A model generated the notes under the pieces. That model was not told the origin of the DNA and searched no databases. It was given only the letters and a program-made list of their open reading frames with translations. DNA of 64,000 bases from Pseudomonadota bacterium. GTDB lineage: Bacteria > Bdellovibrionota > Bdellovibrionia > Bdellovibrionales > Bdellovibrionaceae. Shown one piece after another: positions 3,506-8,766 of the stretch (within the stretch, counting starts at the first letter, position 1; each line of letters begins with the position of its first letter). Position numbers and translations under genes: made by a program. Where the stretch lies: contig JBEGVH010000030.1 of the NCBI GenBank assembly GCA_041178425.1, positions 233,137-297,136 on the forward strand. Direction: 5' to 3'.

Positions 3506-3596
3506 GGGAACAGACTACCAAAACTCCCTCCCAACGAGTCTCTAAAAACATCTCCACTTTCTCTTTTTCACCACACCAGCCAAAAAAAGGCTCACC

Positions 3597-3793
3597 CCCT
3601 GTAGGCCGCACAAGCCGATGACGACGCCAACGACGATGCCAACGACGAGGACGGCACCTCCTCCGCATCATTTTTCGCTCCAGAATCGCCGTCATCGAGG
3701 CGGCGAGGAAGAGGCGCGGAGGCCTACTCCCTGTAGGCCGCACAAGCCGATGACGATGCCAACGACGAGGACGGCGATTCTGGAGCGAAAAAT
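3597..3793. repeat. GC-rich structured repeat element (direct repeat plus 24-bp inverted repeat)
   Basis: CCCTGTAGGCCGCACAAGCCGATGACGA...GCCAACGACGAGGACGGC at 3597-3655 and 3729-3775; perfect inverted repeat 3670-3693 / 3770-3793; inner hairpin GGCCTAC-TCCCT-GTAGGCC. Confidence 0.85.
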
Positions 3794-4027
3794 AGATTTG
3801 CCCTGAGGGTGGCGTTCCCCCAGGGCGGGCTTAAGAGTCGAGGTCTGTGGGCGACGACTCAAAAAACTCTTTAAATTTCTATCAGGGAAGGTTAGAGCGT
3901 CGTCATTCTGATGTTCGCTCTCAAGATGCTTTTTCCCTATCAATTTTTTTACGCCACTCTAACCCTCGAGGTAGAAATGCTCCAAGTTAGCGCCCATGAG
4001 TAAGCACAGGTGCTTAGAGCGATCGAC

Positions 4028-4855
4028 CTAGGCAAGCAACTTCAGGGCCACCGCTGGCAACTGATTAGCTTGGGCCAAGACAGACACGGCGGATTGCTGC
4101 AATATATTTGCAGAGGCCATTTCTGCTGACTCCCGAGCTACGTCGGTGTCGCGAATTCGAGAATTCGCAGCACTTAAGTTCTCGTGTTGCACATCTAAGT
4201 TACTCACGGTTGCAAATAATCTATTTTGAATGGCACCAAAATTCGCTCTCATCGATCCAATTTTTACGAGAGCGTCATCGACAACTTCCAATGTATCGCG
4301 GGCTCCACCTTTGTCGGATATATCAAGATCAGAGATACCAATGGCTTTAGCTGTGGCATCTGTTGAGAGATCGTAGGAGACTCTGTTTTCGTTTCCACTA
4401 AAGGCTCCCACATGAAATTCCATTTTTCCGCCAGAACCATCGAGGAGAGTTTTTGCTCCAAATCGGGTGGTTTTAGCGATTCGATCTGATTCTTGAACGA
4501 GATGCTTTACTTCTTGATTGAGAAATCCTCGTTCGGTTTCACCAATGTTGTCGCTGGCCGCCTGGATTCCCAGTTCGCGCAAACGAATGAGGATATTACT
4601 AATCTCATTGAGGCCGCCCTCAGAGATTTGGATAGCCGATCCAGCGTTGTAGGCATTATTTCGGGCCTGACTTATCCCCCGAATCTGCCCTTTCAAGCTT
4701 TCCGAAATCGACAAACCTGCTGCATCATCGGCGGCATTAACGATTCGACTGCCCGATGACAATGCTTGAGCCGCATGTTCCGCCCGCTTCTGCTGGTTAC
4801 TTAAAACCCGCTGGGCGCTAATCGACGCCATGTTAGTGTTTATTCTTAAGCCCAT
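4028..4855 (-). CDS. fliC: Flagellin (short type), downstream paralog
   Basis: MGLRINTN...LSSGSRIVNAADDAAGL N-terminus and SRIRDTDVARE...LAQANQ C-terminus; GGAGGAG RBS. Confidence 0.95.
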   Translation of the reverse strand: MGLRINTNMASISAQRVLSNQQKRAEHAAQALSSGSRIVNAADDAAGLSISESLKGQIRGISQARNNAYNAGSAIQISEGGLNEISNILIRLRELGIQAASDNIGETERGFLNQEVKHLVQESDRIAKTTRFGAKTLLDGSGGKMEFHVGAFSGNENRVSYDLSTDATAKAIGISDLDISDKGGARDTLEVVDDALVKIGSMRANFGAIQNRLFATVSNLDVQHENLSAANSRIRDTDVARESAEMASANILQQSAVSVLAQANQLPAVALKLLA

Positions 4856-5043
4856 ATGTTGATCTCCTCCTTCAGAGATTTAGCGATACCTTGCCGACCG
4901 AGAATTCCACAGCTCTCGAGCGACAAGCGTGTTCGATGAACACAAAATTGTTTTTGTTTATGTGTTGAGAAGAGATCTTGGGATTTGCTACTCGTTGTTA
5001 CTGCTGAACGAGGAGTTTTCCGTTGAGGTCTTCGTCATGCACG
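4856..5043 (-). promoter_or_regulatory. Long structured 5' leader of the downstream flagellin
   Basis: About 190 nt between sigma28 promoter and ATG; stem-loop CUCGUU-CAGCAGUAAC-AACGAG (4991-5012); GAUCUCUUCU (4968-4977) can pair with SD region GGAGGAGAUC (4861-4870). Confidence 0.6.
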
Positions 5044-5049
5044 TATTAC

Positions 5050-5076
5050 TTCTCGGCGAAGGTCCAGGAAACTTTA
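5050..5076 (-). promoter_or_regulatory. Sigma28 (FliA) promoter of the downstream flagellin
   Basis: Minus strand TAAAGTTT-N11-GCCGAGAA versus consensus TAAAGTTT-N11-GCCGATAA. Confidence 0.85.
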
Positions 5077-5157
5077 GGGCCAAAGTCTAGGTTTTTTTGG
5101 GCGCAGCGCATCTTGTGATTGAAATGACTAACTTTTGAATTGAAAAATATTTTAGCC

Positions 5158-5191
5158 AAAGGTCTAGGTCTAGCTCGACTAGACCTAGACC
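5158..5191 (-). terminator. Probable terminator of the upstream flagellin
   Basis: Perfect 13-bp stem GGTCTAGGTCTAG-CTCGA-CTAGACCTAGACC about 40 nt after the stop, followed by a short U-run on the minus strand. Confidence 0.7.
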
Positions 5192-5232
5192 AAGGTGGGT
5201 TGGGGCGCTACAAAAATTGATTAGAAATTATT

Positions 5233-6060
5233 CTAATCGAGCAGTCTCAGTGCTGACTGCTCCAAGATGTTAGCTTGAGAGAGAACTGCGATCTGATATT
5301 GAGTTTGAATTTTTCCTTTTGTCATTTTTGTAACGGCATCAGCAACATCGGTATCCGCCATTTTTGATCGCGCCTCTTCAATGCTGATTTCATGCGACAA
5401 GAGATGATCGACAGCATGCTGAAGTCTCGACTGAAGCGAGCCAAAAGAGGCACGAGCGACTCCTATTTTGGAAAGTGCTTCATCAAGATCTGCGATGGCG
5501 TCAACAGCATCGTCCTTGTCGGCAAGGCCTAAGTGGTTGAGCCCCAGCGAATCAGAGGAAGTATTGGCTTCGAGAGAATAGGAAATTTTATTTTCTTTCC
5601 CTCCGTAGGCGCCCACTTGGAATTCAAATTTTTTTCCACTACCAATGAGCAACTTGTTTGATCCGAACTGGGTGGTTTTTGATACTCGATCTACTTCACT
5701 GCTCAGTTGCTGAAACTCATCGTTGAGCATTTGGCGTTCAACATCAGACACGGTGTCACTGGCTGCTTGGATGGCCAATTCTCGCAGACGAATAATAATA
5801 TTATTTTGTTCGTTAAGCCCGCCTTCGGCCACTTGAATAAGCGAAATCGCATTGTCAGCATTCAAACGTGAGGCCCTAAGGCCACTCGCTTGTCCGCGCA
5901 AATGTTCGGAAATGGAAAAACTCGCAGGATCTTCATCGGAAGTGGCCAAGCGTGAGCCCGATGCTAATTGAGCCATGGCGCGATTGGTCTCGGCCTGGCT
6001 GCCTCTCATGTATTTAATAGCCGACAAAGCAGCCATGTTAGTGCCTATGCGAAGGCCCAT
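5233..6060 (-). CDS. fliC: Flagellin (short type), upstream and more divergent paralog
   Basis: MGLRIGTN start at 6060 with AGGAGG RBS; QVAEGGLNE, RLRELAIQAASDT and DTDVA motifs. Confidence 0.92.
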   Translation of the reverse strand: MGLRIGTNMAALSAIKYMRGSQAETNRAMAQLASGSRLATSDEDPASFSISEHLRGQASGLRASRLNADNAISLIQVAEGGLNEQNNIIIRLRELAIQAASDTVSDVERQMLNDEFQQLSSEVDRVSKTTQFGSNKLLIGSGKKFEFQVGAYGGKENKISYSLEANTSSDSLGLNHLGLADKDDAVDAIADLDEALSKIGVARASFGSLQSRLQHAVDHLLSHEISIEEARSKMADTDVADAVTKMTKGKIQTQYQIAVLSQANILEQSALRLLD

Positions 6061-6147
6061 TGGAATCCCTCCTACGTTGTCTGTTGCCCAACAGATCAAG
6101 GTGAGGGTCGCCCACAGAATTTAAACTCTCGTTCAGCAGTAAGGTCC

Positions 6148-6176
6148 ATAGTATTGCTGCGCATTGTTATTGTAAA
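6148..6176 (-). promoter_or_regulatory. Sigma70-type promoter of the upstream flagellin
   Basis: Minus strand TTTACA-N17-TACTAT with AT-rich upstream tract; predicted +1 near 6140-6142. Confidence 0.65.
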
Positions 6177-6264
6177 TAAGTTTTATATGCACCCCGTTAA
6201 GTAAATGAAATCTATTTGGAATTTATTTACCAAAAAGAAACAACGTCTTCACTATGCAGAAAGC

Positions 6265-6424
6265 CTCTCCCTCTTTGCGGGGTAATTAAAACAGCGATAA
6301 CTTCGGGACGGCCATTCCATGGCCTCCGCCGGCGTGGCCTGCCCCGTTGGGGCAAGGCCAACACATCACGTTCGCCGGAGCCCGAATTTCTTCGCTGTTT
6401 TAATTACCCAACTAAGAGGGAGAG
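6265..6424. repeat. Palindromic element, copy A (conserved GC-rich core in long inverted-repeat arms)
   Basis: Arms 6280-6297 / 6392-6409 (perfect 18 bp) and 6265-6275 / 6414-6424; core 6301-6392 resembles the reverse complement of 59656-59745. Confidence 0.9.
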
Positions 6425-6450
6425 ATGCCTGCGTTTTGGCTAAACTTAGA

Positions 6451-7200
6451 TTAAGCTTCGATAAAGCTGCCGCCTTGATCATCGAGCTTATAAACGGAGG
6501 TGCGATTATTGAGCCAACTGCCAAGATTGACAGATTTAATGACTCGGTTTTCAAATTCGAACGAGTATTCATCGAGAACATGAAAGTGGCCTGTGATAAC
6601 AAACTGAGAGCGATCTCGATCGGCAATCGCGCGAGCGTATTCGCGAGAAAGAAGTCGTAAATAGTCTTGTTGGTCTTGCCGTTGCACACGACTTTTTTTG
6701 GAAGAGGCTTTACTCATTTGAGTTCCAACCCAATCCCAGAACCCGCCGGGAAGAGTGTGGGCCAACTTCTGCATAAACGGAGAGCGAATTTTCTTTCGAT
6801 ACTTCAAGTAAGCTTCATCGCGCAAATTGATTTCATCCCCATGAGCCATATGAACAATCCAGGGCCCCATAGGCATTGATAGAGGGCCGGTTAAAACCGT
6901 GGCGCCCATCTTTTGCTCCCAAAAAGGGGCAATATGAACATCGTGATTACCTTCAAAGTAGATAAGTTGAAGACGGTGTTTTTTGGTGAGAGACTCAATG
7001 GCCTTAATAATTGGATTCCATCGTTTCACAAAAACTTCGTGATCGCTGATCCAGAGATCAAAAATATCACCCAAAAAACACAGATGCGTTACCGATCCTT
7101 GGGGTTGCTGCCACAACGAAAGCAAAAAGCGCAACAGCTTTTGACTGTTGCGCTCTTCCATCGATTTTAAATGTAGATCTGAAATAAAGTAAGCCTGCAA
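6451..7200 (-). CDS. lpxH: UDP-2,3-diacylglucosamine diphosphatase (LpxH-like metallophosphoesterase)
   Basis: SDLH, GDIFDLW, GNHD, HGD, GHFH and NLGSW motifs. Confidence 0.85.
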   Translation of the reverse strand: MQAYFISDLHLKSMEERNSQKLLRFLLSLWQQPQGSVTHLCFLGDIFDLWISDHEVFVKRWNPIIKAIESLTKKHRLQLIYFEGNHDVHIAPFWEQKMGATVLTGPLSMPMGPWIVHMAHGDEINLRDEAYLKYRKKIRSPFMQKLAHTLPGGFWDWVGTQMSKASSKKSRVQRQDQQDYLRLLSREYARAIADRDRSQFVITGHFHVLDEYSFEFENRVIKSVNLGSWLNNRTSVYKLDDQGGSFIEA

Positions 7201-7212
7201 ATCAGTTCCCTA

Positions 7213-8766
7213 TTACTTTTTGTCGGCGTCTGCCTCGTATCCTTGTTGTTTACGACGTAAAAAAGCAGGAACCTCAAAATTCTGTGAAAAAGGATTTCTC
7301 AGTGCCTCTCGCGCCAGTCGCCGAGCTTCTTCAAGAGCCGCTTCGTCCATATTGACTCCACTGCCTTCAGTTCCGCGAGTTCTAACATCCTGAGTTTCAC
7401 GAAAAGATCTCGCCTTAGCAATTAATAAATCTCTCGGAAGGCCTCCTGACTCAGTTGGCTGGGCATTTTCCTGAATTTTTCTTTGAGCGTCAACAGGCTC
7501 GCTCGCAACAAGTGTCTCTGCGGGAGGCATCACTGGCTGGTGAGTCATCGGCTGAAGGCCTTGAGTCATCATTGGTTGGGACATCATTGGTTGAGCGATG
7601 TGTTGTTGATATGTTTGATTCGGCATCTGCGGCTGTGTTGGCATTACCTGTTGAGTCACAGGGTGAATCATTGTCTGCATCGGTTGAGACATTGGATTCA
7701 TCATGGGCGCAGGGGCTGCTTGTTGTGCGTTGACAACGGGTTGTGCCGGTTGGCGATGAAGAAAGTCTTGCATTTGCTGAGCAAGATGCTGACCAGCTTC
7801 TTTTTGTTGGCTGTATTCAAAACCGGTTGCAATAACAGTAACACGAATTTCGTCGCCCAGAGTATCATCGATAACCGCTCCAAAGATAACTTCTGCATCT
7901 TCATGGGCTGATTCGGTAATAAGCGTAGACGCTTCGTTAACTTCGTAAAGGCTAAGATCTGGTCCACCGGTCACATTGATGATAATGCCTGTGGCTCCAT
8001 CAATGGAAATGTTCTCAAGAAGTGGAGAAGAGATAGCGGCTGTAGCAGCTTCAACAGCGCGATTTTCTCCGCGAGCACTTCCTGTGCCCATAAGAGCAAT
8101 GCCTCGGCTAGACATTACGGTGCGGATATCAGCAAAGTCGAGGTTGATTAAACCACGAATATTAATAAGGTCAGAAATCCCTTTAACTGCTTGAAGTAGT
8201 ACTTCGTCTGCTTTTTTAAAGGTCTCAAGGAGTGGAGTTCGTTCAGAAGAAATGCTGAGTAGTTTTTGGTTAGGAATAACAATAAGTGTATCAACATTTT
8301 CTTTTAACTCTTGAAGTCCAAGATCAGCGTGTTTCTGACGCTTTTTACCTTCAAAAACAAAAGGCTTCGTTACAACACCAATAGTAAGGGCGCCAAGTTC
8401 TCGAGCGATTTTTGCAACCACAGGAGCTCCACCCGTTCCGGTTCCGCCACCCATACCAGCGGTAACAAAAACCATGTCGGCGCCTTCAATTTTTTCAACG
8501 ATATCATTATAAGATTCAATGGCCGCGCGACGACCGATGTCTGGATTAGCTCCAGCGCCGAGTCCCTTTGTGAGCTCAGAGCCTAATTGAATACGATTCT
8601 TCGCTTTATGAGCAGCAAGGGCCTGACGATCAGTATTGGCCACAATAAATTCAACGCCATTCATACCTGAATCGATCATTGTTGAAACGGCGTTATTACC
8701 ACCGCCACCAACGCCAACAACTTTAATATTTGCACCGATATTGATATTTTCTTCTAGCTCAAACAT
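7213..8766 (-). CDS. ftsZ: Cell division protein FtsZ with long Q/P/M-rich linker
   Basis: [30 protein letters not shown]-terminal peptide FEVPAFLRR. Confidence 0.98.

Follow-up and report, generated by a model that had tools for sequence, protein, structure and literature searches.

Conserved base pairing between the 5' leaders of paralogous flagellin mRNAs in Bdellovibrionales, a putative switch of fliC1 expression

Introduction

The RNAs of antisense systems such as hok/sok, IS10 RNA-OUT and CopA/CopT pair through docking of a 5' tail on a loop or through loop-loop kissing, with no need of Hfq. They are encoded in cis, overlap and are fully complementary to each other. FlaX of Vibrio cholerae is an RNA derived from a flagellin transcript that pairs with a paralogous flagellin mRNA, blocks ribosome binding and alters filament composition; it is processed from the 3' untranslated region (UTR) of flaA, is associated with ProQ and acts one way (PMC11879080). 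In Listeria, the hly 3' UTR binds the non-paralogous prsA2 mRNA and protects it from RNase J1 (PMC8722363), and in Campylobacter the base-pairing RNAs FlmE and FlmR tune the flagellar hierarchy (PMC11187230). Here, we analyze two flagellin genes, flagellin A and the fliC1-class gene downstream of it, whose leaders carry complementary sequences. They lie in tandem on the minus strand of a 64,000-nucleotide stretch of a Bdellovibrionales genome (GCA_041178425.1, contig JBEGVH010000030.1, positions 233,137 to 297,136), hereafter called the window.

The flagellins of the Bdellovibrio filament are arranged in the order FliC3-5-1-2-6, with FliC1 just proximal to FliC2, and the portion of Iida 2009 available to us offers no ordering mechanism (PMC2791853). 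The proteome data show that Bd0604 (fliC1) and Bd0606 rise together late in the cycle and, in the part covered, do not separate the two in time (PMC12546842). Pairing between flagellin messengers could help to explain how Bdellovibrio makes ordered blocks of near-identical flagellins.

The leader-to-leader pairing network among flagellin paralogs is real and order-wide, and it is apparently undescribed. A literature search, with most subscription papers outside its coverage, found no case of paralogous mRNAs cross-regulating through their 5' leaders and no description of such pairing in Bdellovibrio. It is very likely that functional RNA-RNA pairing takes place between the flagellin leaders. 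With a probability of roughly 0.55, the fliC1 leader is an RNA switch that paralogous flagellin mRNAs set in trans through their own leaders.

Flagellin classes, transcript starts and promoters

A protein tree, built without regard to the leader sequences, served to class the flagellins of 29 genomes. The named loci nearest to the window locus belong to Bdellovibrionota/Pseudobdellovibrionaceae, and the 3.06-Mb genome holding the window has 8 flagellin matches. Flagellin A forms a clade of its own, present in 20 genomes with a support of 0.99 and sister to FliC1; among the 29 genomes, some of them fragmented assemblies, no A gene was found in 6 that have a FliC1-class gene. Since the downstream gene of the window groups with the gene preceding the FliC2-class gene in locus L229 of B. 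bacteriovorus Bd16, and the Bd0606 promoter matches the start of that FliC2-class leader, the downstream gene is assigned to the FliC1 class. The mapped start of Bd0606 is the 10th base after GCCGAA (PMC3627812). Application of this spacing to the relatives puts the pairing segment of A at +1 and the fliC1 start at 5042; all A and fliC1 starts used below are predictions from sequence.

The original prediction gave A a TTTACA-N17-TACTAT promoter and fliC1 a sigma28 leader; the first site is present at 6176-6148, and a sigma28 promoter CTAAAG-N14-GCCGAGA at 5077-5050. The growth/attack logic of sigma70-driven against sigma28-driven flagellins that it offered as a possibility finds no support as a general rule: a sigma28 promoter is clear in 12 of 20 A genes, weak in one and absent from seven, including those of the window's genus. 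The A promoter of most other genera is of sigma28 type and lies at the same position. A TAnnnT hexamer stands 7 nt before the seed (the 5'-terminal pairing segment of A) in all four aligned sequences of the window's genus, and the congeners have TAGACT where the window's A gene has its -10 TACTAT. These comparisons indicate that the sigma70-versus-sigma28 arrangement is lineage-specific and that the sigma70-like -10 of A is a local replacement; a switch of the A promoter from sigma28 to sigma70 type appears to have occurred in more than one lineage. Taken alone, a sigma70-type scan does no better than chance (6 sites against 6.9 in shuffles). A TAAYGCRNNGCG-like box precedes the A (6188-6200) and fliC1 (5102-5111) promoters and, in sigma28-driven A genes, lies within the promoter spacer. 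A 222-nt piece of a related strain corresponding to 6088-6309 (weak evidence from a single contig) has 13 differences, none of them in the seed at 6123-6142 and one of them bringing the A -10 closer to consensus.

Conservation and covariation of the A-fliC1 pairing

The perfect 15-bp inverted repeat from which the pairing had been proposed (4998-5012 and 6128-6142) is confirmed, as are its extension to 20 bp with one bulged C (6123-6142 against 4998-5018) and the hairpin at 4991-5012. Whether no mismatch or one is allowed, the 15-mer has only these two sites in the genome of 3.06 Mb. Among 244 seeded genomic sites, that in fliC1 pairs best with the first 20 nt of A, at -29.1 kcal/mol against -23.9 kcal/mol for the next, A's opposite strand being excluded. 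The chance expectation of such a repeat in one given leader pair of 85 x 190 nt is 1.8e-5. Perfect inverted repeats of at least 15 bp with arms 500-1500 nt apart number 5 genome-wide, with 2.6 expected, and this count is what could be said for chance or a lineage-specific relic without function. Order-wide conservation, compensatory changes and the joint loss of seed and target speak against such a relic and make its probability negligible, and a chance origin was rejected on the ground of covariation. The decisive evidence for the repeat is its conservation with compensatory changes.

In an all-versus-all screen of leaders (16,290 pairs, scored with approximate stacking energies), A-fliC1 combinations reached -29.2 within genomes (n=20) against -18.3 across genomes (n=500), the only strong own-genome excess. 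The fliC1-fliC2 combinations came second, with -20.7 against -17.9, and the other 15 class pairs had no clear own-genome excess. A cascade across all six flagellins was looked for and not found: the FliC3, FliC4 and FliC5/6 class pairs came out without own-genome excess, the A-FliC5/6 pairs having a weak one (p=0.031, uncorrected). A ViennaRNA set to which named loci were added, and from which 8 duplicate loci, 2 A genes of weak assignment and 12 leaders whose start could not be assigned were excluded, gave a mean A/fliC1 duplex energy of -32.3 kcal/mol in 29 own-genome pairs against -19.0 kcal/mol in 1681 cross-genome pairs, and the own-genome partner ranked first in 15 of the 29. Eighteen of the own-genome pairs span 15 genera.

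The hairpin of the fliC1 leader pairs with the first ~20-27 nt of A, the median duplex being ~27 bp. At seed positions 1-8, 198 of 200 cells are Watson-Crick pairs, with one G·U and one mismatch (25 distinct rows, the row of L264 being shifted by one base). At least 10 variants of the A seed occur, each matched by the fliC1 target of its own genome, and the window differs from its congeners by a two-sided change at +1. A comparison of orthologous loci for compensatory changes between the two leaders had been named as a check of the original prediction, and it reveals both conservation and such changes. The placement of the seed at the predicted +1 of A and of its target in a hairpin loop of a sigma28 leader is supported in the same way.

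Under a scoring neutral between the two transition mismatches, G·U and A·C occur at a ratio of 43:16 in the own-genome A/fliC1 duplexes and of 1752:1640 (52%) in the cross-genome controls. This excess of G·U, expected of RNA pairing, indicates that the sense RNAs are the pairing species. The pairing is kept where opposite-strand genes separate A and fliC1 by ~4-5 kb, which points to action in trans. Sequence comparison supports the A-fliC1 and fliC1-fliC2 pairings and their action at the RNA level and in trans, and conservation, compensatory changes and the G·U bias together bear out the paralog-to-paralog RNA pairing originally proposed. A DNA-level element, whether an invertible segment bounded by the repeats or a pair of sites bound by protein, would account for the perfect 15-bp arms flanking A and the fliC1 promoter in the window. 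Such an element is highly improbable, given the bias for G·U over A·C on the sense strands, the bulged duplex and an arm sequence that varies between genomes and covaries within them; moreover, A lies upstream of fliC1 on the same strand in every locus holding both, and contigs of four DNA runs, which drop rare variants, contain no strand-changing joint. An invertible switch of the hin/fim type was rejected for its varying arms, RNA-type mismatches, single orientation and lack of inversion joints.

The hairpin target (hp1) is missing from the 6 genomes that yielded no A gene, some of these assemblies being fragmented, and in G028 and G068, which have A, neither seed nor target was found. In 8 genomes outside the order, 6 matches were near background, many of the leaders having no recognized promoter, so that this test is weak. 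Exact-pattern matches in G017 and G068 (4 loci inspected) lie in or beside unrelated open reading frames, none in a flagellin leader. A search of plasmids with a relative's fliC1 leader gave no match and is uninformative, and Rfam covariance models run on 5 loci (E<=1) gave two irrelevant sub-threshold matches only.

The fliC2 arm and the second loop

In 42 of 56 own-genome pairs, the 5' tail of fliC1 pairs with a segment of the fliC2 leader (<= -15 kcal/mol), with matched variants in G023, G027, G015, G010 and L220 and a G·U:A·C ratio of 22:9. Nine of the 14 misses are in genomes without this arm (the window's genus, G005 and G017) and five are second fliC2 copies. The 7-mer in the loop of a second fliC1 hairpin (hp2) has a complement in 35 of 56 fliC2 leaders and in 9 of 29 leaders of A genes. 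The loop variants CUGUCAC, CAAUCAC and UAGUCAC each find their match in the partner from the same genome and in 0-2 of 65 other leaders. In example folds, both 7-mers lie mostly in hairpin loops. The fliC2 arm is present in the named genome B. bacteriovorus Bd16. The original prediction had included neither this arm and the second loop nor the anti-Shine-Dalgarno switch and the correspondence of the target domain to the sRNA APsRNA3, both treated below. The window's genus keeps the A arm only: the genome of the window yielded no partner for the 5' end of fliC1, and its own 7-mer match in the A leader is probably due to chance.

FliC5/6-class leaders (e.g. L038, L039, L072) have a hairpin with an RGGUCA loop resembling that of fliC1 hp2, for which no partner was found among flagellin leaders. 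FliC3-6 leaders (e.g. L005, L045, L038) are rich in CsrA-like GGA hairpin loops, and CsrA, the subject of PMC13443453, is present in 21 of 21 genomes. In place of GGA loops, fliC2 leaders (e.g. L034) carry a GUAGGU loop and A and fliC1 leaders a UGUGGG motif, possibly sites of another binding factor.

A predicted anti-Shine-Dalgarno switch in the fliC1 leader

The sigma28-driven fliC1 transcript would begin with a domain of ~120 nt in which the 5' strand of a helix, P1, holds the anti-Shine-Dalgarno (anti-SD) strand, and in which P1 encloses one or two hairpins with CAGUCA-type loops. The unstructured 5' end of the A mRNA would dock on the hp1 loop and zip up 20-27 bp; where present, the fliC2 mRNA would make a loop-to-loop contact with hp2 and capture the fliC1 5' tail. 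Binding of either mRNA may destabilize P1 and free the anti-SD strand, thereby closing the fliC1 ribosome site, and RNase III cutting of the duplex could likewise close it. As the partner mRNA builds up, FliC1 synthesis would drop, and the FliC1 block of the filament would be limited or ended. Repression of fliC1 is somewhat favored by the folding models as the main output of the pairing.

In the window, 5029-5042 of the free fliC1 leader folds onto 4962-4973 to form P1. The cofold with A no longer contains P1; its released strand makes 10 bp with the SD region, and the dimer gain is -19 kcal/mol. The cost of opening the fliC1 ribosome site changes by +1.42 upon capture of the 5' tail against +0.04 for random blocks (above 0.5 in 18 of 25), by +1.49 upon A binding against -0.22 in the control (18 of 26 up), and by +2.35 in dimers against +0.99 with a shuffled seed (17 of 25 up). 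Hence folding gives better support to the direction from A to the downstream flagellin, as originally proposed, than to its reverse; control in that direction and the P1/anti-SD switching behind it would follow from these models. The P1/anti-SD layout is clearest in G068, G027, G023 and the window. The fliC1 leader of G068 (L295, 64 nt) is reduced to the 5' strand, anti-SD, A-run and SD, in an assembly where neither fliC2 nor any other partner was found. In an alignment of four congeners, RNAalifold gives 14 pairs, one of them with a two-sided change.

The arrow may point the other way: the fliC1 5' domain, as a discrete sRNA or as the full mRNA, would regulate, and the A and fliC2 mRNAs would be its targets, the A 5' end being shielded from or exposed to decay, the fliC2 ribosome site slightly opened and both coupled to fliC1 transcription. 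The data for HD100 bear directly on this possibility, which we regard as rather unlikely. APsRNA3 spans 561,854-561,981 (+), is 128 nt long and is transcribed from a FliA promoter; it is a discrete, abundant RNA with 14,726 reads per kilobase per million (RPKM) in attack phase, against 11,984 for Bd0604 and 1,932 for Bd0606, and Bd0604 begins at 562,130, 276 nt past the APsRNA3 start (PMC3627812). The parts of this paper that were available report APsRNA3 as an intergenic sRNA without function, partner or link to fliC1, and the term was found in no other paper searched. In named Bdellovibrio loci, fliC1 leaders are 266-305 nt long, and an A/U-rich run closes the fliC1 5' domain at a median start of ~+121 (31 of 39 leaders have the run). 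Coordinates, leader lengths and the position of this run in relatives lead to the conclusion that APsRNA3 is the fliC1 5' domain, the match in HD100 being made by coordinates and through relatives. APsRNA4 (HD100 562,984-563,081; PMC3627812 Table 2) begins 30 nt past the end of fliC1 and is a possible 3'-derived flagellin sRNA, FlaX-like in position.

The existence of APsRNA3, the A/U-rich stretch behind the domain, the presence of RNase E/G and of RNase III in all 13 genomes examined and the stabilization of the Listeria prsA2 mRNA by 5'-end capture (PMC8722363) all suit the fliC1 domain as the regulator, as does the fliC2 ribosome site, whose opening eases slightly upon pairing in 11 of 37 pairs and is harder in 2. 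Against it, the ribosome site of A shows no trend upon binding (11 up and 10 down of 28), RNase J was over the cut-off in none of the 13 genomes (one full-length match below it, in G020), and the P1/anti-SD layout is left unexplained.

Mutual destruction or co-localization has also to be considered, in which the duplex would balance flagellin amounts without any structural switch, through RNase III co-degradation, sponging or gathering of flagellin mRNAs at the pole. The duplexes with A are long enough for RNase III, and Hfq was found in none of the 21 genomes searched, which is consistent with long unaided duplexes. The fliC1/fliC2 helices are just 11-17 bp plus the loop-loop contact, and the directional effect on the ribosome site exceeds the controls, so that we consider this explanation improbable.

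Several observations weigh against the fliC1 leader as a switch set in trans. The folding effects are modest and non-uniform, being opposite in 4 of 26 cases for A binding and 5 of 25 for dimers, and a 24-nt duplex gave a weaker effect (14 of 28 up), the window being slightly opened. The free equilibrium folds of several genomes already pair anti-SD with SD in the absence of a partner, so that the model needs co-transcriptional trapping, and quick release of APsRNA3 would leave the anti-SD unable to act in cis. Scored for pairing with its own SD, the anti-SD candidate reaches the top decile in 11 of 31 leaders and in 21 of 55 in another set, and RNAalifold on a MAFFT alignment of 13 fliC1 5' domains gives no consensus pairs. 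A look for RNA runs covering 3900-6500 of the window returned none, a result that carries no information on expression. The start sites of A and fliC1 are predicted, the near-identical A/fliC1 pairs of L215, L218 and L219 rank mid-field, and the p-values overstate the case because the genomes are related and not independent. The knockouts of Iida 2009 reportedly may leave the leaders intact, which would soften one further objection. Band intensities in the mutants of that study were similar to those of the wild type in the portion available (PMC2791853).

If the fliC1 switch operates, an mRNA relay could time the filament blocks, the leader of a later flagellin (A and/or fliC2) flipping the fliC1 anti-SD switch without a dedicated sRNA or chaperone. 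We put forward this relay tentatively, and an effect on filament order is what we infer from it.

Other features of the locus

The mapped elements are listed in Table 1. The 13-bp inverted repeat behind A was not called a terminator by a terminator scan. YTAGAC/CTGGAC boxes occur at 5161-5191 and 5080-5095 and, in relatives, upstream of the promoters of fliC1 and fliC2. They stand before and inside sigma28 promoters, in many cases as inverted pairs, and are probably sites of a flagellar regulator.

Table 1. Elements of the flagellin A-fliC1 locus in window coordinates
Feature	Position	Strand	Basis
Flagellin A, upstream paralog, sister clade of FliC1	5233..6060	-	NCBIfam flagellin matches; protein tree, A clade support 0.99
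FliC1-class flagellin, downstream gene, predicted target	4028..4855	-	NCBIfam flagellin matches; protein tree; class of the gene preceding FliC2 in Bd16 L229
A promoter, probably sigma70-type (-35 TTTACA, -10 TACTAT)	6148..6176	-	Inferred
TAAYGC..GC box upstream of A promoter, probable transcription-factor site	6188..6200	-	Conserved in alignment, across relatives
A 5'-end antisense seed, predicted ~+1 to +19, may reach 6110	6123..6142	-	Start from -10 spacing and mapped Bd0606 start
UGUGGG motif, common to A and fliC1 leaders, may lengthen duplex	6111..6116	-	
A SD, AGGAGGG	6067..6073	-	Sequence
fliC1 sigma28 promoter CTAAAG-N14-GCCGAGAA, predicted start 5042	5050..5077	-	Position weight matrix score 22; invariant in congeners; Bd0606 spacing
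fliC1 helix P1, 5' strand (anti-anti-SD)	5029..5042	-	Predicted
Target of A seed: hp1 5' strand and loop	4998..5018	-	Complementarity
Hairpin hp1, 6-bp stem, 10-nt loop	4991..5012	-	Folding
P1 3' strand/anti-SD, 10 bp possible with SD region, -15.2 kcal/mol	4962..4977	-	Family-wide support moderate
A/U-rich single-stranded stretch closing fliC1 5' domain, candidate processing site at a position equivalent to the 3' end of APsRNA3	4943..4962	-	Inference
fliC1 SD within small GGA-loop hairpin, possible CsrA site	4863..4872	-	CsrA binding inferred
ATGCGCTGCG box upstream of fliC1 promoter, motif family of A box	5102..5111	-	
13-bp perfect inverted repeat 3' of A stop codon: candidate A terminator and/or protein-binding boxes	5161..5191	.	

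The flagellin pair is located at the end of a division and cell-wall gene cluster, in which the FtsZ gene (7213-8766) encodes a long Gln/Pro/Met-rich C-terminal linker. The interval separating flagellin A from an lpxH-like gene holds a long imperfect palindrome with 33-nt arms (6265-6424). The inner ~90 nt of this palindrome recurs at least 7 times elsewhere in the genome, has raised contig depth and resembles REP (repetitive extragenic palindromic) or MITE (miniature inverted-repeat transposable element) sequences. Downstream of fliC1, 3588-3793 contains a 58-nt direct repeat and a 28-nt inverted repeat with no further genomic copy.

Comparison with known systems

If the relay is true, the order of proteins in the filament would be partly encoded by base pairing between paralogous messengers, and this would be a case of paralogous mRNAs cross-regulating through their 5' leaders, kept across an order. 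The pairing offers the orphan sRNA APsRNA3 a function and a partner. It also yields predictions for the laboratory model B. bacteriovorus that are specified to the nucleotide and open to compensation.

The 5'-end-to-loop geometry from which a likeness to hok/sok and IS10 had been drawn is predicted here, and likewise for CopA/CopT: the predicted seed lies at the inferred +1, the target is the hp1 loop, and the 7-mer loops covary. Unlike in those systems, the partners are encoded in trans, as chromosomal paralogs in separate genes on the same strand ~1-5 kb apart, and their duplexes contain bulges and G·U pairs. Like FlaX (PMC11879080), a flagellin-derived RNA is predicted to repress a paralog (17 of 25 dimers, 5 opposite), whereas all pairing segments in Bdellovibrionales are in 5' leaders, two paralogs converge on one leader, and the predicted repression would be indirect, via the anti-SD switch. 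As with hly-prsA2 (PMC8722363), the contact is one between two mRNAs in trans in which a 5' end is captured, but the Bdellovibrionales pairing joins 5' leader to 5' leader between paralogs, in genomes with no RNase J over the cut-off. The acting species of the hly-prsA2 kind is a full-length mRNA; APsRNA3 suggests that a fragment of the fliC1 leader can exist. FlmE and FlmR share the tuning of flagellar genes by base-pairing RNAs, but they are sRNAs, dedicated or derived from flgE, whose targets are flgM and the mRNA of a regulator, and no flagellin leader acts on another among them (PMC11187230). Thus, the pairing of flagellin leaders departs in a defining feature from each of FlaX, plasmid antisense systems and hly-prsA2.

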